Assembly: GCA_032128875.1 (NCBI GenBank)
Contig: JAVLKG010000003.1
Location: 513,008-577,007, forward strand
Reading direction: 5' to 3'
DNA from: Candidatus Melainabacteria bacterium 17Bon1m
Lineage (GTDB): Bacteria; Cyanobacteriota; Vampirovibrionia; Obscuribacterales; Obscuribacteraceae
Length of the DNA stretch: 64,000 nt
Below the pieces are notes generated by a model that had not been told where the DNA came from, searched no databases, and saw nothing but the letters and a program-made list of their open reading frames with translations. This document shows positions 42,590-53,389 of the stretch, one piece after another; position 1 is the stretch's first letter; every line of letters begins with the position of its first letter. The position numbers were made by a program, and so were the translations under genes.

Positions 42590-44632
42590 CTAGTTTCTTG
42601 CTGAGTCGCCTTCAGAGACCTTTTCCATCTGCGGCGCTACGCCAGGGCCGAGAGCTTGTTTGAGCTTATCCAAACTTTCTTTGGCCGCTTGTATATAAGG
42701 ACCATCAGGATCCAATTTCACATATTTTTCGTAAGATGCAACCGCGTCTTGCTGATCGCCTTTTGCTTGATAGATCATACCGAGCGCATAGTAGGCATTA
42801 GCGTAATTAGGATCGATTTTGATGGCGCGATTGTATTCAATGATCGCGTCATCGGGTCTTTCCATGCCCATCAACGCAACGCCCAGATTGTAGTGAGCAA
42901 GCGAATTTTCCGGCTGCATTTGGATGGCTTTCACGTAAGCATCTTGTGCAGCTTGATATGCCTTTTGACCAAGATAGATGTTGCCGATATTGATATTTGC
43001 TTCTACCAAATTCGGATTCATTTCCAATGCTTTCTTGTACTGACCCAACGCTGCAGTCAATTCTTTATTGCGCTCAAGCGCCAATCCAAGGTCGTTATAG
43101 GCATCGGCAGAACGAGGATTGACTTGAACAATCTGCTGATACGCTTCAATAGACTGCGCACGTTTTCCTTGTTGTTCCAAATTCTCTGCAAGCAATTCGA
43201 GTACGGCCACGTCCTCTGGGTTTTTAGCAAGAAGCTGACGGTAAGTAACTTCCGCTTTATCAGCCATACCTGTTTGTCCATTCAAACTCGCCAGTGCAAG
43301 AATTGTGTTTCTGTCCGTGGGAGAAAGTCCGATCGCAGAATCAAGAGCAGAACGCGCACCAGCAAAGTCTTTCAACTTCATGAGCGTGTTGCCCAATTCT
43401 AAAAATGCTGCCGGATCTGTTCCGTCGATACTCAAACCTTGTCTGTAATACTCAACGGCAGTTGGTAGGTTGCCGCCAAGCAAATAGTTTCTGCCCAAGT
43501 TGATCATCGCAGTGCCGTCGTTCGGATTCGCAGCAATAACAGCTTTGAATTCGTTTTCAGCATCTCCCAATTTACCTTGCTTCTGTCTGATGATACCCAG
43601 GTTGTAGTGGGCGTTTACGAAATCTGGCTTGATGCGAACGACTTGCGTGAATGCGTCAGCAGCGCCATCGAGGTCGCCGGTCAATTGCAGAATGTAGCCC
43701 ATGCTGTATGCGCTATCCGAGTCAGATGGATTGATTCTGATCGCTGTGCGATATTCGCCGACCGCTTTGTTGAACTCTTTTAGTTTGGTATAAACATCAC
43801 CGAGCTGGGCATGCCATTCACCCTTATTGTCATTGAGTTGCAGTGCCGCTCTCAACTCATTTGCAGCTTCGGTGTATTTGCCGCGCATCGCAAGAGTGCT
43901 TGCGAGCAAGGCATGCACATCTGGAACTTTCGGATCGATTTTGACAGCGCGTGCAAAGGCATCTGTTGCGCCATCAATATCCTTTTGAGCCAAAAGGCAG
44001 TTTGCCAGGTTGTATTGCATGGAGAAATTGTTCGGTTCGTGCGCCAGAATGCGCTTGTATTCTTGCGACGCGGCAGCGAACTGACCTTTGTCTTGCAGTG
44101 AAGCAGCTAGTTGTGAACGGGCTCTGAGGTGGTCTGGATAATTTTCGACTACGCGTCGAAGCTCGTTGATGGCGCTGTCCAGATTGCCCTGAATGCGGTG
44201 TGCGATACCAAGGTTGAGGTAGAACAATGGAATGTCCGGGCGAAGCTTGATGGCTTCTTCGTATTGCTGAATTGCTTCGTCCATTTCGCCTTGACTTTGC
44301 AAAAGCGAGCCTAGCGACTCACGGGCAAATGCGTCATAGGGGCGAAGTGAGATAGCGCGTCTGTATTCGGCTATCGCGTCATCGACATCACCGTGTTGGT
44401 GAAGAACAGCAGCCAAGCTCAAATGCACCAGCGGATCTTCCGGGCAGTTCAATGCAAGCGCCTTAAACGCGCTGAGAGCATTGTCTAAATCGCCCTTCTT
44501 GAAGAAAGTAACGCCTTGATAGTACTGCTCCAGCATAGGCTTGGACATGCCTGCGCTTTCTTTGTCTGCGGCCACTGCTGCAGTGCCTGCAAGAGCTATC
44601 GAGATTGCCAGAAGGACCGATATCTGCCTCAC
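42590..44632 (-). CDS. large secreted TPR-repeat protein
   Basis: GTG start with AGGAG; signal peptide; continuous 34-aa TPR units (AHYNLG, AYNDLG) over ~600 aa. Confidence 0.9.
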   Translation of the reverse strand: MRQISVLLAISIALAGTAAVAADKESAGMSKPMLEQYYQGVTFFKKGDLDNALSAFKALALNCPEDPLVHLSLAAVLHQHGDVDDAIAEYRRAISLRPYDAFARESLGSLLQSQGEMDEAIQQYEEAIKLRPDIPLFYLNLGIAHRIQGNLDSAINELRRVVENYPDHLRARSQLAASLQDKGQFAAASQEYKRILAHEPNNFSMQYNLANCLLAQKDIDGATDAFARAVKIDPKVPDVHALLASTLAMRGKYTEAANELRAALQLNDNKGEWHAQLGDVYTKLKEFNKAVGEYRTAIRINPSDSDSAYSMGYILQLTGDLDGAADAFTQVVRIKPDFVNAHYNLGIIRQKQGKLGDAENEFKAVIAANPNDGTAMINLGRNYLLGGNLPTAVEYYRQGLSIDGTDPAAFLELGNTLMKLKDFAGARSALDSAIGLSPTDRNTILALASLNGQTGMADKAEVTYRQLLAKNPEDVAVLELLAENLEQQGKRAQSIEAYQQIVQVNPRSADAYNDLGLALERNKELTAALGQYKKALEMNPNLVEANINIGNIYLGQKAYQAAQDAYVKAIQMQPENSLAHYNLGVALMGMERPDDAIIEYNRAIKIDPNYANAYYALGMIYQAKGDQQDAVASYEKYVKLDPDGPYIQAAKESLDKLKQALGPGVAPQMEKVSEGDSARN

Positions 44633-44958
44633 CTTTTCACTCCTCAGCGCTGATTGACAACGTGGAATCCAAATCAAAATTCAGTTGGGGTGCCATTCAA
44701 GGCCACAAAAACAATATTATGACCGATGATGCCCCGCTAAGAAACCCATCATTACTAAATCGCATGCTTTTCAAGGGGTTGGCGGTACTCGGCGCAATCA
44801 CCGAAAATGCTGTCCTTACCTGGTTTTGCGAAGATTTCTAAGGATTCGAACTAAGACACATTGCACCACAATTCTAGTAACCCGGAAGGACTTAGAGTGT
44901 CTTCCATAGATCTTGTGACAGCAGGATATGGAAAATGTTTCTGACTTATTGGAATTAG

Positions 44959-45053: not shown

Positions 45054-47993
45054 TCAAGCGGTTGGCTGGGACTGCTCTCCTGCCTTCTTCTTTCTTGTAA
45101 AGACCATCGCCAGTAAAAGAAGAGAAAGCGTTCCAAGAGCAAGTCCTGACCCTAGATAGAAGCTTAACGGGCGATAAGAAAATTCGACGACATGTTTGCC
45201 TGGTGCTACGGCAACCCCGCGAATAGCATAATTCGTGCACAGAATTGGTGTTTTCTTGCCATCAACCTCCGCTTCCCAACCAGGGTAAAAGTAGTCGGTA
45301 AAAACTAGCAAGGAGTCGCCTGCGGCATCGCAGTCGATGCGAACATTGTTGGGCGAGATGCGTTCTACATGCGGAACAGGCCCGTTGAACGAACCTTCAG
45401 GCAGCTTGTTGTTCGCCAGCTTTTCAAAAAGGCGTTTTTGACCTTCATCAAGAACGTCCATCTTTTGGAATATTCTGCAGAAGTCGGAATCACAGGGCTG
45501 CCACGTTTTGTCGTCAATTTCTACTATTGCAGTTTGGCGTGCCGGGAAGTCCGGCGATAATATTTTTTGTAAGGCTTCCTCACCAGTGCGGGCCGGCACG
45601 ACCTGCCCGACTAGGTAAGCCTGTGGCAGCGCGGTTGTGTTTCGGTAAATGCGAATATGATCTTCGCCAATTTCATGGAGCAATTGAAAGCGTTTTCCAT
45701 TAACAGAATTTGCAGCAGCAACAGTGGCTGGAACAGTCCAAGTGCCAAGGTTATAGACGTCACTAGTAGTCTTTTGTCCATCTTTGAGAGGAAGCAGGAA
45801 TGCAACTTTCGTGGAGTCGAATACTTTCACTCCAACCTGAAATTGTTGATTGGATTTAAGTGATTCCGGCAGTGGTGCCGTGAAGTTAAAACGGGGTTTG
45901 AAGAGTCCCCTGATTGGTGTGCTGCCGCCAAACCAGATTGGGTTGCCCTTTGCATCAGAGATGATCGGGACATAGTTGTACCGGTCAAAGGGTTCTGCTT
46001 TCCCGCGCGGAATCTTGGCCTTAGTACCTTCCTTTACCAGTTTGTTCCGCTTTTCTTCCGCATAGCGCTTAAGTACCGAGCGTCCATTTACATGCCAATC
46101 CAGACTTCCAATCACTTCTCTATTTTGAAAATCGATTGAGACATCCGACGCGTTAAGAACGATGCCGCCTTCGAATACTGCTGGTTTTGACACCTTAATG
46201 CACGTGTCCTTCTCCAACTCTTCGTCAGCGGAAATCGCTGGCGATAAGCCAATCACGTAAGCCACGCTGAATAAATCGAGAAGCTTGGATTGCTCCCTGT
46301 CTTCGGGCAGTATGTTGAAGAAATCGACATGCAGGCGCGCTTTCCGCATGAGGTCGTAAAAGCGTTTGTGAAAGGCTGCATTGTGCTGGGCAAGACTGCG
46401 AATGCCATAGACGGCATTGCTATTTGCCGCTAAGACGGAAAATCCTAATGGTGCCACTCGTTCTCCAGTTTCTTTCAAGAGCTTGTGCGCTGGTGTCAGT
46501 GCGAATTCAAAATTTGGACGAACCGGCAGTGCGTTCCGACTTACAAGCAATTCGCTTAAGAGGCACAAGCTGAGCGCTGCGATCGATAGCTGCGTGGCAG
46601 ATACTTTTGCAAGTCTATAAACCACAATGACGCCTATGAACGCTAGCGATATGAAAAGGTCGGTTAACCAGATTTTGGCTTGCAGTCTGACTTGGGGAAG
46701 TTCTCCTGCGAAACTGAGGCTGCTGAGATTTACGTGGCACAGATTTAAAATCTGAGGCAAACCCAGAGCAATTGCCAGCACCACTGACATTGCGAGCAAG
46801 CACCGTTTTGATTTAAGCGCATCCTGCCGGAGTGCATCGACACCAAAACCCAAACCAAGCGCAATCAGTATTAGAAAAGAAAAGGAGTAATATGCGCCTG
46901 GTATCAGTTGTAGTGGCGTTCTGCTTGAAAGCCAGCCAATTGGACCAATCGAGCACATAACTGGATAGATGAGAACAGCCGATGCTGCAATGCAGTGAAA
47001 GATTTTTTGCTGTTGATCTTTAACGAAAAACGCTGCAGCAAGTAACGGCAAAGCCAAGATACCGAACCACGGAGATTGAGGTCCCAAGCCTGGATGCATC
47101 AGAAAGTAGGGAAGGCTCATCCAGGGGAAGATATCTTGCTCCAAATTGAATTTGTAGCAAGCGCATGCCTTCATAAATTCTATTGCCGGAAACAATATCG
47201 GCGATGCTAAACATGCACTCAAGACGCCAATGCAAGCGATGCCGAGGAATGCGTTACGAACGGTTGTGACGCGCGATTCACCGGAGTGGTAGACAAAGAC
47301 CAATAACAGCACATAGAGAATACTCGCCGCAAAAATGCCTCCAAAAACTATGAGCGGATGCCCAGTAAAAATTATCAGAGCTGTCATTGCGGCAGCGAGA
47401 GCTAGCCGAGGCACACTGTTTTTTTGCGCAGCCCGTATAAATGCCGCAAATAAATAGGGACAAAGTGTGTATGTTGGACCGGCCATTAGTTCCAGGTACG
47501 TCAACTGATATGGTGACAAGGCATAAACAGTGGCCACGAACATGGAGCTGAGGACGCTCAGGCGGAGAATTCTTGAAAGCAAGAAACAGCCGATAGCGCC
47601 GCAAGCTACTTGCAGGAGAAGCACCTGGTTGTAAAACGCGATAGTTGGGCAGAGGCTAGACAATATACGCCACGGCGAAAAAATGCAGGACTGCAAGTCG
47701 CCAATCAATGGAAAGCCAAGGCCCACATACGGGCTCCATAGCGGCAAAATTCCGTCGCGCCAATACTGCCCGATGGTCACAAAATTGGGCGCTTTCAGCA
47801 AATAAAGTGATGTATCCCAGGCAAAATAGGCTGATGGGTCACGGAATTGGCTGTACAAAAGGTCTCGGTTAGCCAGCAAGAAAGTCTTGGAAATTGGCAG
47901 GTGAAGAATGAATGTCTTGTAGAAGAAAGCCAACAAGAACAACGCGATGCCGAAAACGGCAAGCAATTCCTTATGCCGGCGAATGAAATTCAT
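45054..47993 (-). CDS. YfhO-family (GT-C type) polytopic membrane protein
   Basis: PLWSPYVGLGFPLIGD, GHP, many TM helices, YRNTTALPQA, YPGWEAEVDG, GKHVVEFSYRP + terminal TM. Confidence 0.88.
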   Translation of the reverse strand: MNFIRRHKELLAVFGIALFLLAFFYKTFILHLPISKTFLLANRDLLYSQFRDPSAYFAWDTSLYLLKAPNFVTIGQYWRDGILPLWSPYVGLGFPLIGDLQSCIFSPWRILSSLCPTIAFYNQVLLLQVACGAIGCFLLSRILRLSVLSSMFVATVYALSPYQLTYLELMAGPTYTLCPYLFAAFIRAAQKNSVPRLALAAAMTALIIFTGHPLIVFGGIFAASILYVLLLVFVYHSGESRVTTVRNAFLGIACIGVLSACLASPILFPAIEFMKACACYKFNLEQDIFPWMSLPYFLMHPGLGPQSPWFGILALPLLAAAFFVKDQQQKIFHCIAASAVLIYPVMCSIGPIGWLSSRTPLQLIPGAYYSFSFLILIALGLGFGVDALRQDALKSKRCLLAMSVVLAIALGLPQILNLCHVNLSSLSFAGELPQVRLQAKIWLTDLFISLAFIGVIVVYRLAKVSATQLSIAALSLCLLSELLVSRNALPVRPNFEFALTPAHKLLKETGERVAPLGFSVLAANSNAVYGIRSLAQHNAAFHKRFYDLMRKARLHVDFFNILPEDREQSKLLDLFSVAYVIGLSPAISADEELEKDTCIKVSKPAVFEGGIVLNASDVSIDFQNREVIGSLDWHVNGRSVLKRYAEEKRNKLVKEGTKAKIPRGKAEPFDRYNYVPIISDAKGNPIWFGGSTPIRGLFKPRFNFTAPLPESLKSNQQFQVGVKVFDSTKVAFLLPLKDGQKTTSDVYNLGTWTVPATVAAANSVNGKRFQLLHEIGEDHIRIYRNTTALPQAYLVGQVVPARTGEEALQKILSPDFPARQTAIVEIDDKTWQPCDSDFCRIFQKMDVLDEGQKRLFEKLANNKLPEGSFNGPVPHVERISPNNVRIDCDAAGDSLLVFTDYFYPGWEAEVDGKKTPILCTNYAIRGVAVAPGKHVVEFSYRPLSFYLGSGLALGTLSLLLLAMVFTRKKKAGEQSQPTA

Positions 47994-48368
47994 AAGAAAT
48001 GAACCAAAGACCTTATTTAGTTAAAGCAGTAAAGCAAAATAACTATTGTTCTACATGAACTATAAATAGATGTGCCTGCTTGCGGCGGGGTCGGATTGCG
48101 CTCATTACCAAGAATAAGTTGTTACTATTGGTGGTAGTGGATGGTGAGTAACGCGTGAAACGCTCGAAAATTGCCTCTTTTCAGAGAATCGCAGATGAAT
48201 TTTCTGGTCATAACGTGAGTTTTGCTCCCCAAGAGCCGGTTACAAAATTCAAAGTGTATATAGTGCATATTCCTTGCCCGGTAAGGGTTTTCAGCTGCGG
48301 GATGTCAAGGTTCCCATTTCTTTCTTAGACAGGTTGGCTAATAACTGACGTCGTTTTTTGGACAGGTT

Positions 48369-48403
48369 GCACATTGTCCTGAATGTGCCATCGGGTGTAC
48401 ATT
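48369..48403 (+). promoter_or_regulatory. candidate sigma70 promoter overlapped by palindromic operator
   Basis: TTGTCC-N18-TACATT; GCACATT-N6-AATGTGC overlapping the -35. Confidence 0.4.
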
Positions 48404-48409
48404 TAGAGA

Positions 48410-48711
48410 AGATAGCGGAAGTGAACCGGCATCCAGTGCGCACAAAAATGCGTCCGCATGCGCGTTCATACGTCTATCTAAGGTGACACGGACCAACCTC
48501 GTTAGGGAGCAGTCCTTTTATGCGTAAGCTACGTAAAATCAAAACACCATTCAGTTAGCGTAGCCTGTTGGCGTGGGGCGGCATTACTGCGCCCAGACTT
48601 GGACTTACAACAAACAATGGAGAGAGAGCTCTAAGAGGCTTTCTCCGGAGTTACACACACCAAATACGGTAGCAAGCACAGCTTGTGACCGAGTTTCAGG
48701 AAGGTTTTTTT
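48410..48711 (+). promoter_or_regulatory. structured 5' leader, candidate cis-regulatory RNA
   Basis: At least five hairpins identified by eye across the ~300 nt before the aminotransferase ATG. Confidence 0.5.
48520..48558 (+). CDS. candidate leader peptide MRKLRKIKTPFS
   Basis: AGGGAG SD 10 nt before ATG; 12 codons + TAG. Confidence 0.35.
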   Translation: MRKLRKIKTPFS

Positions 48712-50316
48712 ATGGCTCTGTATCAGAAAGACACTACCGTTAAGCGATTTCCGGTTGTCGATCGTGGACCCAGTCACTATGAAGAGATTGCCGGACGTGC
48801 GCTCGAAAATTCCATCAATCATTTGAACCCATACTTCGCTAACAAGCTTTGCGGCTCGGAAGGTGCAGTCGAGTTTAGAGATGGCGGCGTTTACACCTAC
48901 GACACGCACGGCAAGCGTTACCTCGACTGCCTCGGCGGCTACGGTATCTTCAACGTCGGTCACCGTCACCCGAAGGTCATTGCTGCTGTAAAAGCTCAGC
49001 TCGACCAAGTCTGCCTGCACAGCCAAGACTTGCTTAACCCATGGGCTGGACACCTCGCAAGCCAGTTGGCAGCGATTGCTCCAGGCGATATTCAGTATGC
49101 ATTTTTCTGCAACAGCGGAACCGAAGCAGTTGAAGGGGCTTTGAAACTGGCTCGCCTCTACACAGGCAAGTCTGAAATCATCTCGACGAAGAACGCCTAT
49201 CACGGCGTCAGCATGGGCGCACTCTCGGCTACCGGCCGCGATTGTTTCCGCAAGCCGTTCGAGCCATTGCTCAATGGTTTCACCCATGTTCCGTTCGGCG
49301 ATATCAAGGCACTGGAAAAAGCAATCACCAAGAACACCGCAGCCGTAATCCTTGAGCCAATTCAAGGTGAAGGCGGCATCAACGTTCCTTCTGAAGGCTA
49401 CTTACGCAAAGTTCGTCAGCTGACCAAGAAGAAAGGCGTATTGCTTATTCTTGACGAGGTGCAAACCGGTCTTGGAAGAACAGGCCGCATGTTCGCTTGC
49501 GATCATGAAGGTGTGGTTCCGGACATCATCTGCTTGGCAAAGGCTCTTGGCGGCGGCGTTATGCCGATCGGTGCTTTTATGGCATCTGCCAAAGTCTGGA
49601 AAGTTTTAGAACCGAACCCGAGCATTCACAACTCCACATTTGGTGGCAACCCGCTGGCATGTACTGCTGCTTCTGCCACTATCGAAGTGTTGATGGAAGA
49701 GCACCTTCCAGCTCGCGCCGCTGTTATGGGCAACCACTTCATGCGTCGCTTGCAAGAGCTGAAGAAAAAATATCCGAAGCACATCATGGAAGCTCGTGGT
49801 CGCGGATTGCTAATCGGCTTGGAATTTTCAACACAGGCTTTGCGTGTTGATGTTCAGACCGAACTGTTCCACCGTGGAGTATTGGTTGCTGCCACGATGA
49901 ACTCGAACCGCACCATCCGTATCGAGCCACCTTTGATCATCACTGAGTCACAGATCAATTTCATGATCGACACTCTTGAGTCGATCCTCTCTGAGATCAC
50001 TGAAGTTCCCCAAGACGAGCCGGAAGTTGTAGTCAAACCTGTTAAGAAGCTGGTCAAAAAGCTGGTCAAGAAATCAGTCAAAAAGGCTGTTCGCAAACCT
50101 GCTAAAAAATCAGCGAAAAAACCGGTAAAGGCAAAAACGTCTTCCAAGGCAAAGGCTAAAACAACCGCCAAAGCCAAGAAGTCGAGCACAAAAGCGAAAG
50201 CAAAAACCAGCACGAAAGCCAAAGGTTCAAACAAATCCAAGGCAAAAACCAAAGTAGCTGCCAAAGCAAAATCTGCGCCCAAAGCTAAAGCGAAAAAGGC
50301 GAAGAAAGCTAAGTAA
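48712..50316 (+). CDS. patA: putrescine aminotransferase-like class III PLP enzyme with histone H1-like C-terminal tail
   Basis: DCLGGYGIFNVGHRHP, LHSQDLL, FFCNSGTEAVE resemble E. coli PatA/YgjG; DEVQTG; LAKALGGG PLP Lys; K/A-rich tail. Confidence 0.85.
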   Translation: MALYQKDTTVKRFPVVDRGPSHYEEIAGRALENSINHLNPYFANKLCGSEGAVEFRDGGVYTYDTHGKRYLDCLGGYGIFNVGHRHPKVIAAVKAQLDQVCLHSQDLLNPWAGHLASQLAAIAPGDIQYAFFCNSGTEAVEGALKLARLYTGKSEIISTKNAYHGVSMGALSATGRDCFRKPFEPLLNGFTHVPFGDIKALEKAITKNTAAVILEPIQGEGGINVPSEGYLRKVRQLTKKKGVLLILDEVQTGLGRTGRMFACDHEGVVPDIICLAKALGGGVMPIGAFMASAKVWKVLEPNPSIHNSTFGGNPLACTAASATIEVLMEEHLPARAAVMGNHFMRRLQELKKKYPKHIMEARGRGLLIGLEFSTQALRVDVQTELFHRGVLVAATMNSNRTIRIEPPLIITESQINFMIDTLESILSEITEVPQDEPEVVVKPVKKLVKKLVKKSVKKAVRKPAKKSAKKPVKAKTSSKAKAKTTAKAKKSSTKAKAKTSTKAKGSNKSKAKTKVAAKAKSAPKAKAKKAKKAK

Positions 50317-50606: not shown

Positions 50607-50709
50607 GATATGTGCTCAATGAACGCTATCTCACGCGCACGAAGACGCACATGCTGAATTTGATGCATAATTGTTGCCCTTGATACCAGTTAACCGACTG
50701 CTGAGTTTT

Positions 50710-52044
50710 ATGCACAAACTTCCTTGGAAACCCTTTTGGAGATACACCCTGTTGCTTGGTCTTTTGGCGAGCAGCTGTCAGGGAAGTGATGCTGCTCCTT
50801 CGGCAAGTCAATTGTCATCTGCCTCGCCGCCATCGCATGCCAAGCAGCCCGCGCCGACGTTGCGCCGTTGGTATACCGTAGATGCGAGCAGCCCATCAGA
50901 ACTGAAGCGAAAGCAGGATTACCTTGCGCGAATTGATAGATTTTGGATTCAGTTCAGAAAGGAGCAAGCACAGCTGAGTTTGAGCGGGACTGGAAAAATC
51001 GATCACGCAGCGTGGGCCCAAAAGTACATAAAGCAGGTTGACCCTGAGATTTATTATGAGTTTGGACCCGGCGACAAGGCCCAGGAGACCAAGCTAGATT
51101 TTTCGTGTGTCGGCACGGATACACTCCTTCCTGTTGTGAAAGAGCTAGTTGCTAGAGCTCCCAAGATTGCGGGTTGGACGTTTTCTCCTTATAAGCGACC
51201 AACTAAATTCACCGCTGTGGAGGAGATGTTCAAAGCGCGCGGATTTAAGAAAGCTACTCCTCAGTTTCGTGCGGAGTTCACCGCCAATGAGTTCAACATT
51301 ATCGATGCCCTTGTTGGCTTTTCTGGTGCAACTGGCGATTACAACAAAGATGCAGAAACAGTTTTGCTTCTATCTGACATGATTCTCGGAGAGGAGGCTA
51401 GCGACATCTGGCTTGGAGAGCTGAACGCAAAGAAATTGGCGACACAGAAGAATTTTGACTATGTGCAGAGCGCAAAAGATTTTTCGAAAGCCTTTTACGA
51501 CAAGAAAAAGCAAATGTTAGCGACGTTGCCGAAGGTTCCGTACTACAAGTTGAAGGAATTTGGAACCTATGGAATGTTTGAGTTCCAGAACAAGGATGGT
51601 CGATACTCTCGAAGACAAACAATGTCAACCAGTGCTCAGAAGCTATGCAGCGCCCTGTCTATGGGAGTGCGTTTTCACTCCGAGCGCTTTTCCAATTTTG
51701 GAGAGAAGTTTGCGTATCTGCAGATTCCAAATGCAGGCGTATACGCTGCACCAAAAGAGCGCGGAAAAGTTGAAGATGCTTTGGACTCCGAACTAAGAAA
51801 AGCCCAACTTGGATGTGTGTTTGCTGCTGGTTTTGGAAAACCAGACATCTCATACATAGACCTCTGCCTTGTTGATGTAAACAGGGCTACGCCGATAATC
51901 AAGAAGATATGTGCTCAGTTCAAACTGTCGCACAAGAGTAATTTGCGCTTCTACGATTCTGACTGGCTTTATGAATGGGTAAAAATGTTTCCCGATACTC
52001 CTGTTCCTGACGACTTAGGAAAGCCATGGTTTTACAGACCATAG
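50710..52044 (+). CDS. hypothetical lipoprotein (paralog A)
   Basis: LLASSC lipobox; collinear similarity with next gene; start uncertain (50671/50710). Confidence 0.8.
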   Translation: MHKLPWKPFWRYTLLLGLLASSCQGSDAAPSASQLSSASPPSHAKQPAPTLRRWYTVDASSPSELKRKQDYLARIDRFWIQFRKEQAQLSLSGTGKIDHAAWAQKYIKQVDPEIYYEFGPGDKAQETKLDFSCVGTDTLLPVVKELVARAPKIAGWTFSPYKRPTKFTAVEEMFKARGFKKATPQFRAEFTANEFNIIDALVGFSGATGDYNKDAETVLLLSDMILGEEASDIWLGELNAKKLATQKNFDYVQSAKDFSKAFYDKKKQMLATLPKVPYYKLKEFGTYGMFEFQNKDGRYSRRQTMSTSAQKLCSALSMGVRFHSERFSNFGEKFAYLQIPNAGVYAAPKERGKVEDALDSELRKAQLGCVFAAGFGKPDISYIDLCLVDVNRATPIIKKICAQFKLSHKSNLRFYDSDWLYEWVKMFPDTPVPDDLGKPWFYRP

Positions 52045-52081: not shown

Positions 52082-53389
52082 TTGAAAAGCAAAATTTTGA
52101 ACAATGGAATGCTGTTGGTCTCATTGGTTTTACTTACATCATGTAATTCATCATCGCCGCTTCTCAACAAAGCTAATGGCTCTGCTTACTGCGCTATACC
52201 AACTCGCTGGGCCACTGTGGATGAAAAGTACCCGCCGGAAGTGCGCTTGAAAAAGCAAACCATTGAGCACATTGAACAGTTTTGGAGCGATTTCAAAAAA
52301 GACCAGACAACGCTTAGCTTGGCATTGGATAACCTGCACGGAGAGAGCGGAAAGACGAACTCAGATATTCTTGCGAGCTGGATGAAGGAACATCTAGATT
52401 CGATTGATCCTGTCATTGAATACGAGTTTGGACGTGAAAAGGAAGGAAAGAAACTCGATTTTTCCGCAGCCGGTCACGATGAAGTGGTGCCCATCTGCAA
52501 ACTCCTTGTTTCTAAAGCTCCAAAACTATCCAACTGGCAGTTTTCTGCATATAGACAGCCATTGTCGCCTGCCACTATTGCCACCGGATTTAAAAGGCGC
52601 ACAGGGCGGGAACCGCTTCAATTTGAAACATCTGTGAGTGTTTCGCCGCAAAACAAGTTGGATGTTATGTTCACTTCGCCAGAGTTTGAGAATGACGAAG
52701 AGGATAACATCGAAGCGTGCCGCATCATCAGTGATTTGAGCGTCGGAGAGGAAAACGACGATATCTGGCTTGGAGCCATAACGCCGAAGAAGGGTGCATT
52801 AATGGGGCAGTTCAACTGCGCGAATAATGCAGAACAATATGCAAAAGCGTTTGACGACAAGAAGAAAGAAATTCTCGCTTCACTGCCTAGTACACCTTAT
52901 TTCAAGCAGGATCTCAGCAGGACAGAGGAAGTTCATTTCTCGGGCAAGAAGCGTTTGTCTATGAAGACTGCTTTGAAGAAGCTTGCGGAAACACTAGGAG
53001 CCGGCGGTCGTTTTCATGATGTGCAGTTCTCGAAAAATGGAGAGCATTTTGCGTATTTGAAAGTATCGAAAGCCAAAGACTTGCAGTCTTTGGATAAGGT
53101 TGAGGCGCTGGGAAAGGAATTAGACGCCGAACTTCGTAAGGCGCAAGTCGGCTGCACTTTTGGTATAGGTACAGAATCTCCTGACTCTATCTACATTGAT
53201 GTGGCATTGAAGGAGCTGGATAAAGCTGTTCCAATTTTGAAAGCTTTTTGCGAATCGCACAAATTTGATCATGAGAGTACGCTGCGTTTTTACGACTGTG
53301 TGTGGCGTAACGAATGGGTGGCGATGTTTGATGATACGAAGAAACCGCAGGATCTGCGGAAGCCCTGGTATCTGGTTGAAGAGAATTAG
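52082..53389 (+). CDS. hypothetical lipoprotein (paralog B)
   Basis: LLTSC lipobox; shares RW.TVD, FW..F, KLDFS, APK..W.FS.Y, YID, LRFYD..W..EWV.MF with paralog A. Confidence 0.8.
   Translation: MKSKILNNGMLLVSLVLLTSCNSSSPLLNKANGSAYCAIPTRWATVDEKYPPEVRLKKQTIEHIEQFWSDFKKDQTTLSLALDNLHGESGKTNSDILASWMKEHLDSIDPVIEYEFGREKEGKKLDFSAAGHDEVVPICKLLVSKAPKLSNWQFSAYRQPLSPATIATGFKRRTGREPLQFETSVSVSPQNKLDVMFTSPEFENDEEDNIEACRIISDLSVGEENDDIWLGAITPKKGALMGQFNCANNAEQYAKAFDDKKKEILASLPSTPYFKQDLSRTEEVHFSGKKRLSMKTALKKLAETLGAGGRFHDVQFSKNGEHFAYLKVSKAKDLQSLDKVEALGKELDAELRKAQVGCTFGIGTESPDSIYIDVALKELDKAVPILKAFCESHKFDHESTLRFYDCVWRNEWVAMFDDTKKPQDLRKPWYLVEEN

Follow-up and report, generated by a model that had tools for sequence, protein, structure and literature searches.

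What does the leader of about 300 nucleotides ahead of an amine transaminase gene in Candidatus Melainabacteria bacterium 17Bon1m respond to, and in which part of it does the information sit? A sequence-only reading of this DNA had proposed a candidate structured cis-regulatory RNA responsive to a polyamine, a diamine or a basic amino acid. The window, i.e., the whole stretch analyzed here, is 64,000 nt long (GCA_032128875.1, JAVLKG010000003.1, positions 513,008-577,007, forward strand), and coordinates below refer to it. Here, we report that, by comparison of sequences, this is a real, order-wide cis-regulatory leader whose information sits in a mini-ORF and its stop codon; most likely, this long leader is no riboswitch and instead carries a tiny upstream gene with kept last codons and UAG. 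The closest orthologs of the downstream transaminase are found in Candidatus Obscuribacterales/Melainabacteria genomes, and of 107 genomes from the order (Obscuribacterales), 86 have the gene. The upstream regions of all 87 gene matches and of one split match were compared (88 loci, 33 genera); these loci are kin, and the counts given below overstate their independence. Across the comparison the order of elements is two boxes and promoter, 5' hairpin, short upstream ORF (uORF), variable spacer and the transaminase gene, a PatA paralog. In this genome they are located as follows.

48325-48341 (+), operator-like box 1, an imperfect palindrome with 7-bp half sites and a 3-bp spacer
48358-48374 (+), operator-like box 2, 33 bp after box 1 and abutting the -35
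48374-48403 (+), predicted sigma-70-type promoter, -35 TTGTCC (48374-79), 18-bp spacer, -10 TACATT (48398-403)
48410-48479 (+), 5'-terminal long hairpin, the 70-nt hairpin of the sequence-only reading (fold z -3.11)
48490-48515 (+), small hairpin with a putative role, containing an SD-like run of purines (48505-48509) before the uORF (local folds)
48520-48558 (+), leader ORF of 12 codons, MRKLRKIKTPFS-UAG, penultimate Phe (ORF conservation across the order)
48559-48565 (+), conserved 3' stop context, UAG-C-R-K-N-N-N-Y (alignment of distinct sequences)
48566-48697 (+), variable structured spacer with genus-specific hairpins (48576-94, 48619-46, 48667-91)
48698-48704 (+), Shine-Dalgarno-like AGGAAGG of the transaminase (sequence)
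48712-50316 (+), class III PLP aminotransferase, PatA paralog, 534 aa (profile and residue comparison)

The 5' boundary of the leader is set by its promoter. The two 17-bp boxes, 33 bp apart, and the -35 and -10 that follow are almost invariant in all 31 genera matched by an anchor pattern, and box 1 by itself is near-invariant in 31/31 of them. Both the position and the sequence of the promoter are conserved across genera in this comparison; genera g7 and g46 and a second gene copy (L163) gave no match to the anchor pattern. A plain consensus scan missed the promoter, which has 8 of 12 matches to the consensus. From the position of this conserved promoter, far upstream of the ATG of the gene, transcription is inferred to start near 48410, the first base of the 5' hairpin. 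The conserved leader of about 300 nt on this amine transaminase is very likely cis-regulatory, as had been proposed. For the RNA data, assembled contigs from 4 of 21 listed runs were compared with the window. The contigs of runs X1 and X3 extend unbroken over the entire stretch and resemble DNA. In run X8, one contig from a close relative spans 48426-49645 and bridges leader and gene. In runs X7 and X8, coverage is missing 5' of the leader, but their contigs end at different places and thus neither map the start nor prove a single transcript. The box pair is unique in the genome: of 145 PWM hits, no other two lie 30-36 bp apart, and the PWM search gave no second pair and no operator regulon. 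It was not found in the nine genomes of genera g16 and g5, which likewise have no transaminase gene, and no candidate regulator gene was seen near it (48325-48374). A weak single box (13.7 bits) lies before a deoxyhypusine-synthase-like gene (G000:C5:594098).

The folding of the leader was what had first suggested a structured RNA. The helix arms that we looked up are indeed present at the positions given for them, and the inner GCAT/ATGC and GCGCA/TGCGT pairs of the 70-nt hairpin are present in the computed folds; across relatives, however, they do not make one conserved fold. Compared with dinucleotide shuffles, the whole leader folds modestly better, the effect being small (z -1.83, 4/100; in a repeat, z -1.92, 9/200), whereas the 5' hairpin alone (48410-48480) does so clearly (z -3.11, 1/200); the segment 48560-48711 gave z -2.32. 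A multiway junction closed by GTAAG/CTTAC has a pairing probability of 0, and its 5' arm is formed by codons 2-3 of the uORF. That no known riboswitch consensus is recognizable was borne out by Rfam, in which no family reached threshold; in gathering and E-value modes, only tRNAs attained the gathering score, with three unrelated hits below it. In 11 leaders of the same genus (82% identity) the helices are kept, but compensatory changes are few, i.e., 4 of 74 pairs in RNAalifold and 3 of 47 local pairs, one of which was misentered, and no fold extends across genera. Per-genus consensus folds have no topology in common, and the spacer varies from 96 to 283 nt across 30 genera. A candidate conserved hairpin over the stop codon is present in this genus, but was rejected by the swap test across 30 genera (p 0.40).

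Beyond the genus, only the 5' hairpin persists; what persists is its shape, in most cases with the apex close to +38. Between its native arms, pairing is 5.9 kcal/mol stronger than between swapped ones, compared with 1.3-2.1 in three control regions, and its apical stem is 83.5% paired with compensatory changes in 3 of 6 pairs. Its sequence is not conserved (0 invariant columns and 40% identity in 17 sequences), and an apical motif, its pattern drawn from the same sequences, is found in only 23 of 41 leaders and is absent from this genome. Since the shape is kept with no invariant column, the hairpin is probably better understood as a stabilizer of the 5' end than as an aptamer. The proposed ligand-binding structured RNA is thus not borne out, as, this variable hairpin apart, neither conserved nucleotides nor a common fold was seen in the leader across genera; as a signal, a polyamine stays plausible.

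The conserved elements are the uORF and the operator/promoter, both of which the sequence-only reading had missed in its list of elements. A uORF, defined as an ATG-started frame of 8-30 codons that ends Phe/Tyr-X-UAG at 60-330 nt upstream of the gene, occurs in 79 of the 88 loci and 30 of the 33 genera. The same rule was matched in 230 of 4400 shuffled leaders, in 48 of 1764 upstream regions elsewhere in this genome (the window's own leader had been dropped by the control filter and is not among the 48), and in 1 of 57 outgroup transaminase loci. The rule was derived from the first 30 loci, and two tests independent of its Phe/Tyr part were added. When UAG-C-R-K was located by nucleotides alone, an open in-frame ATG was found in 60 of 63 distinct loci, compared with 2 and 3 in the other frames (duplicates were merged, and eight loci have no such motif). 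In the promoter-only set of 23 metagenome loci, 7 of which duplicate earlier loci and 21 of which carry the transaminase, the uORF is present in 22, and the remaining one ends after 71 nt; four further genomes have it in 4/4. In the frame test, 31 uORFs have exactly 12 codons, 46 have 10-14, one has 16 and 13 have 22-24, i.e., the compared uORFs are of 10-14 or 22-24 codons with a mode of 12, and end Phe/Tyr-X-UAG-C-R. The uORF retains its frame, length and stop, whereas the remainder of the leader is too diverged to be aligned. We consider it very probable that the uORF is real. One metagenome locus, L195 (894-1393), has retained both operator boxes, the promoter, the 5' hairpin and a uORF of 9 codons that ends Phe-Gly-UAG-C, and a 65-aa ORF and a sensor-kinase-like ORF follow in place of the transaminase.

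Where in the uORF the constraint sits can be read from its 3' end. Information content peaks from codon -3 to base +6, and again at +10, and is at most 0.5 bit further on; the columns of codon -2 and UAG also served as the selection rule for this set. In distinct sequences, +4 is C in 49/51 and +10 is a pyrimidine in 49/51, and UAG is invariant among motif-bearing loci. A C at +4 weakens termination. The last codon before UAG varies (14 codons, 8 residues) and Phe exchanges with Tyr at the penultimate position. A basic residue (Arg or Lys) occupies position -8 in 16 of 30 genera, and the remaining N-terminal part varies; overall the peptides are basic, with 71 Arg/Lys and 13 Asp/Glu in 402 residues. 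The choice of codons is skewed more than the peptide requires (TTT for 23 of 27 Phe, the genome using TTT at 45%, and CTG for 16 of 19 Leu), so the RNA sequence itself may be read. Among 3055 long ORFs of the genome, 1093 end with UAG and only 7 with F/Y-X-UAG-C. The motif has five matches genome-wide, the other four being on genes without evident link.

Nine of the 88 loci depart from the rule. Four of them end Lys-Asp-Pro-UAG-C and three Thr-Leu-Leu-UAG-C; L163, the second gene copy, has no leader, and L162 (G089) has a 1-nt insertion in the uORF that puts the ATG out of frame, either by assembly error or by decay. An Asp-Pro before the stop is described as an end with poor release (PMC3985003), and the Asp-Pro variants therefore look like another solution to the same need. 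In a tree made by a quick method, in which 18 of 39 rows were less than half filled, the lineages with Asp-Pro (two) stand apart, but one is on a long branch, and an independent origin of their endings does not follow from this tree.

How might such an ORF work? We propose that the leader is a termination sensor on an amine transaminase, in which a pause at the uORF stop is lengthened by polyamine; the model as a whole we hold to be somewhat better than even. Ribosomes would translate the uORF and then release slowly at UAG, the penultimate aromatic residue hindering the GGQ loop of RF1 in a poor 3' context. We infer arrest at termination because the constraint sits on the penultimate codon, UAG and the next bases, and the conserved span would be what the ribosome holds when its A site contains the stop codon. 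Slow release or stalling at this UAG is probable. The published accounts provide precedents, i.e., the sensitivity of TnaC rises 30-fold with a penultimate Phe, which collides with the release-factor GGQ loop (PMC8429421), the penultimate Ile (Ile13) of the 14-residue PepNL blocks release by a like clash (PMC11890864), and MsrDL, a peptide of 6 residues with Phe-Met at its end, halts at a conserved stop (PMC10314930). The signal that lengthens the pause would be a polyamine, the likeliest substrate class of the enzyme; described uORFs on polyamine genes respond to ornithine, spermidine or polyamines, as in SpeFL, MdtU and MAGDIS (10.1101/604074, PMC6386406, PMC7815308, PMC2811004). Since the N-terminal part is not conserved, a direct effect of polyamine is likelier than a SpeFL-like pocket, and we give even chances to a polyamine acting on the terminating ribosome and not in a pocket built by the peptide.

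The least certain step is how a parked ribosome would raise transaminase expression. Rho was found in 0 of 61 genomes searched, a consensus scan of the leader gave 0 promoters and 0 terminators, with no terminator seen, and RNase J and RNase E are present; the simplest general route would thus be that the parked ribosome shields the message from RNase E/J, the 5' end being already protected by its hairpin, and this we take as the most likely. A lax terminator scan was positive in 15 of 28 leaders and in 59 of 168 shuffles. Neither a terminator nor an RBS-sequestering helix common to the order was seen. In some genera, the parked ribosome may instead melt the anti-RBS strand just after the stop. 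The 16S 3' end of this genome has the standard anti-SD. Blocking the stop region in silico lowered the RBS opening energy by >1 kcal/mol in 8 genera, raised it in 3 and left it unchanged in 17 of 28, and in this genome it stays unchanged; a general RBS-opening switch was rejected, the effect being confined to a minority of the 28 genera. Lineage-matched pairing to the RBS was not significant in four swap tests (p 0.27-0.99), and of eight pairing tests only the first 30 nt from the stop versus the spacer reached p 0.017. Candidates for a lineage-specific expression platform were found in genera g4, g46 and g48, none of them in this genome; in g48 only, bases just after the stop pair with the RBS in a consensus fold of four sequences, and translational attenuation may operate in some lineages. 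A fusion to the transaminase by readthrough or frameshift was also rejected: the distance from stop to ATG occurs in all three frames, and further stops follow at a median of 13-15.5 codons.

A bolder form of this model is that the leader is a minimal bacterial polyamine sensor, the counterpart in bacteria of uORFs of the MAGDIS type, in which the last two codons, the RF1-specific UAG and the 3' context make termination polyamine-dependent with no Rho or terminator, and a short queue of ribosomes shields the mRNA of a transaminase for larger polyamines. We put this forward tentatively, as possible but doubtful. A queue of two ribosomes would match uORFs of about 12 codons, and one of three those of about 23.

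Other readings of the same constraint have to be weighed. The uORF could be a ligand-independent or general-stress sensor of RF1 availability, UAG readthrough or the translation state, with the amine sensed by a factor at the operator boxes. That UAG is invariant, whereas SpeFL uses all stops, that little of the peptide is conserved, that the highly conserved operator pair could carry the metabolite signal and that PepNL is described to arrest without inducer (PMC11890864) are all in its favor; we consider it rather unlikely, given that the motif does not recur on obviously related genes (four of the five genome-wide matches are unlinked) and that readthrough yields no conserved product. The synonymous bias at codons -2 and -1 would also suit an RNA site for a nuclease, a protein or an sRNA around UUU-CUG-UAG-C-R that is covered or uncovered by translation, but 14 different codons, for 8 residues, occur in last place, Phe swaps with Tyr, and the Asp-Pro variant alters the nucleotides yet keeps a poor-release end. 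For the related idea that the uORF is a reinitiation ramp, the spacer of 96-283 structured nucleotides is far, and reinitiation over it is a long distance, although reinitiation at leader peptides was proposed before (PMC4833913). The RNA site and the ramp together appear unlikely.

A riboswitch binding a polyamine or an amino acid, with the uORF secondary to it, would account for the kept place and shape of the 5' hairpin, whose apical stem is conserved in part, and for a leader that is structured within the genus. The missing Rfam hit, 0 invariant nucleotides in 17 hairpins, an apical motif present in only 23 of 41 leaders and not here, a junction that does not form and no common expression platform make it very unlikely. 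Another reading is a classical attenuator that senses charged tRNA-Arg or tRNA-Lys through basic codons: the peptide of this genome does have 2 Arg and 3 Lys, and 16 of 30 genera have Arg or Lys at position -8. But Arg is missing from 12 of the 30 genus peptides, and 10 of the 30 carry a single Arg/Lys or none, which is no run of regulatory codons; no terminator or antiterminator was found in this leader, and the lax scan stands at 15/28 versus 59/168 for shuffles. We think it highly improbable, and the same holds for a small basic protein acting in trans or a functionless relic. Its basic composition (71 Arg/Lys versus 13 Asp/Glu in 402 residues) and L195, which keeps the uORF without the transaminase, would be in line with a trans-acting peptide, whereas it is the final codons, the stop and the bases that follow it untranslated that are conserved, and not the peptide body, and frame, length and stop are kept amid a leader that has diverged beyond alignment.

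The name of the enzyme, putrescine aminotransferase, holds in part: it is a PatA-like amine transaminase, but scores 543.7 with PRK11522, below the cut-off of 612, and a canonical PatA on contig C4 (L180:777-2198, -), which scores 650.6 and is over the cut-off, fits the name better. The C4 gene has no long leader or uORF, so the genome has two PatA-like enzymes under different control. The best solved relative is E. coli PatA/YgjG (PDB 4UOX, E 2e-134). In 149 sequences (query-like proteins and 29 loci, which are overlapping sets), the catalytic and amine-binding residues Q119, E243, D271, K300, T332 and R426 are kept in 149/149 and Q274 in 148. YgjG K183 is replaced by Val, F180 by Tyr and F327 by Ser/Thr in 149/149, F91 mostly by Tyr and L419 mostly by Met. 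The entrance positions F91/F327/L419 and K183 are thus Y/S/M and V here, and F, F, Y and K in the C4 paralog. The YgjG study links a bulky entrance with keeping larger substrates out, and an Arg at 183 with the binding of carboxylates (PMC4244111); because the enzyme has Val and no carboxylate-binding Arg at this position, an amine substrate is likely, and our guess is a larger amine without carboxylate. The genome also carries a deoxyhypusine-synthase-like (homospermidine-synthase-like) gene, three arginase-family genes and three Orn/Arg/DAP-decarboxylase-family genes. Co-occurrence of the deoxyhypusine-synthase-like gene with the transaminase is loose: genus g16 has the former in 6/6 and no transaminase, and g3 (3 genomes), g10 and g51 have the transaminase with no match to the former. 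No conserved partner was found downstream of the transaminase across orthologs.

Among known systems, what is general to termination arrest is seen here too, i.e., a short conserved uORF between promoter and gene with constraint on its C terminus and stop. From sequence, we take the leader as best read as a new family of termination-arrest leader peptides, which would work like SpeFL, MdtU and MAGDIS without being a member of any. SpeFL/orf34 (speF, gamma-proteobacteria) is likewise a uORF in a long leader of a polyamine-pathway gene; it arrests ribosomes with a stop (UAG in E. coli) in the A site and has an aromatic residue near the C terminus; it is described as 34 aa with an HIRRXXH sensor, a Phe26/28/30/31 core, any stop, Rho dependence and a biosynthetic gene (10.1101/604074), and in Salmonella as also affecting RBS access and RNase G decay (PMC6386406). 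The leader here, in contrast, has 10-24 aa, no sensor motif, a fixed UAG-C, no Rho and a probable catabolic gene; neither HIRRXXH nor the Phe core is in the uORF peptides, and Rho was not found in any of the 61 genomes searched. In MdtU (mdtJI, E. coli), the uORF is likewise on a polyamine-related gene and is needed for spermidine induction of a polyamine-lowering function, its strongest conservation is C-terminal and its stop is about 100 nt before the gene; as described, it differs by 34 codons and Rho dependence (PMC7815308). TnaC/R23F resembles the proposed mechanism in its arrest at termination, a penultimate Phe that blocks the GGQ loop and an induced catabolic operon, whereas TnaC is reported with 24 aa, a terminal Pro, RF2, a tryptophan pocket with the conserved Trp12 and Rho dependence (PMC8429421); the 30 genus peptides have no Trp, their stop is UAG and Rho was not found.

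In PepNL (14 aa; PMC11890864) and MsrDL (6 aa; PMC10314930), release is blocked at a specific conserved stop with a penultimate Ile or Phe, and MsrDL is also Rho-free. Neither is described in amine metabolism: PepNL is released by UGA readthrough with Trp-tRNA (PMC11890864), and MsrDL needs a macrolide and an intrinsic terminator (PMC10314930). The mammalian AMD1 uORF MAGDIS shares the short length, polyamine-dependent stalling at termination and a polyamine-pathway mRNA; it differs by eukaryotic scanning, a stall that represses a biosynthetic enzyme and no homology (PMC2811004). The odc1 motif of alpha-proteobacteria has a short (11 aa) conserved uORF on a polyamine-pathway gene, but overlaps the main ORF, starts with UUG, and has a conserved pseudoknot and a wholly conserved peptide; by the same account, the polyamine-linked potE motif also differs from the leader uORF, as odc1 does (PMC8632094).

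No published description of the leader was found in a search that covered mostly open-access articles and their main texts, and neither 'Obscuribacter' nor 'Melainabacteria' occurs among the literature matches listed. As far as published accounts go, metabolite-sensing arrest peptides are few and mostly enterobacterial, with TnaC, SpeFL and MdtU acting via Rho; this family offers about 100 natural variants in a lineage where Rho was not found, including an apparent swap between two poor-release endings, aromatic-X-stop and Asp-Pro-stop. A 12-codon template could reveal whether polyamines act directly on bacterial RF1 termination, and the ligand of the leader would name the substrate class of an uncharacterized PatA paralog. 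The leader is also an example of riboswitch-like structure in which the information sits in a mini-ORF.

A few observations concern the gene and its surroundings. The transaminase has a Lys/Ala-rich, histone-H1-like tail of 104 aa (50002-50313, +); basic tails of 13-123 aa with 30-69% Lys/Arg are present in 27 of 29 complete orthologs, and the tail could bind nucleic acid, even its own leader. Apparent frameshifts in the transaminase of L206 (G109) and of G023 (split matches) reflect assembly error or decay. A TPR-repeat protein is the usual divergent neighbor of the transaminase across the order; in the window (42590-44677, -, and 45054-47993, -), the two are set apart by a membrane protein of 979 aa for which NCBIfam gave no match. 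After the gene, two tandem, apparently related lipoprotein-like ORFs (50671-52044 and 52082-53389, +), with no NCBIfam match, vary among relatives of the same genus.
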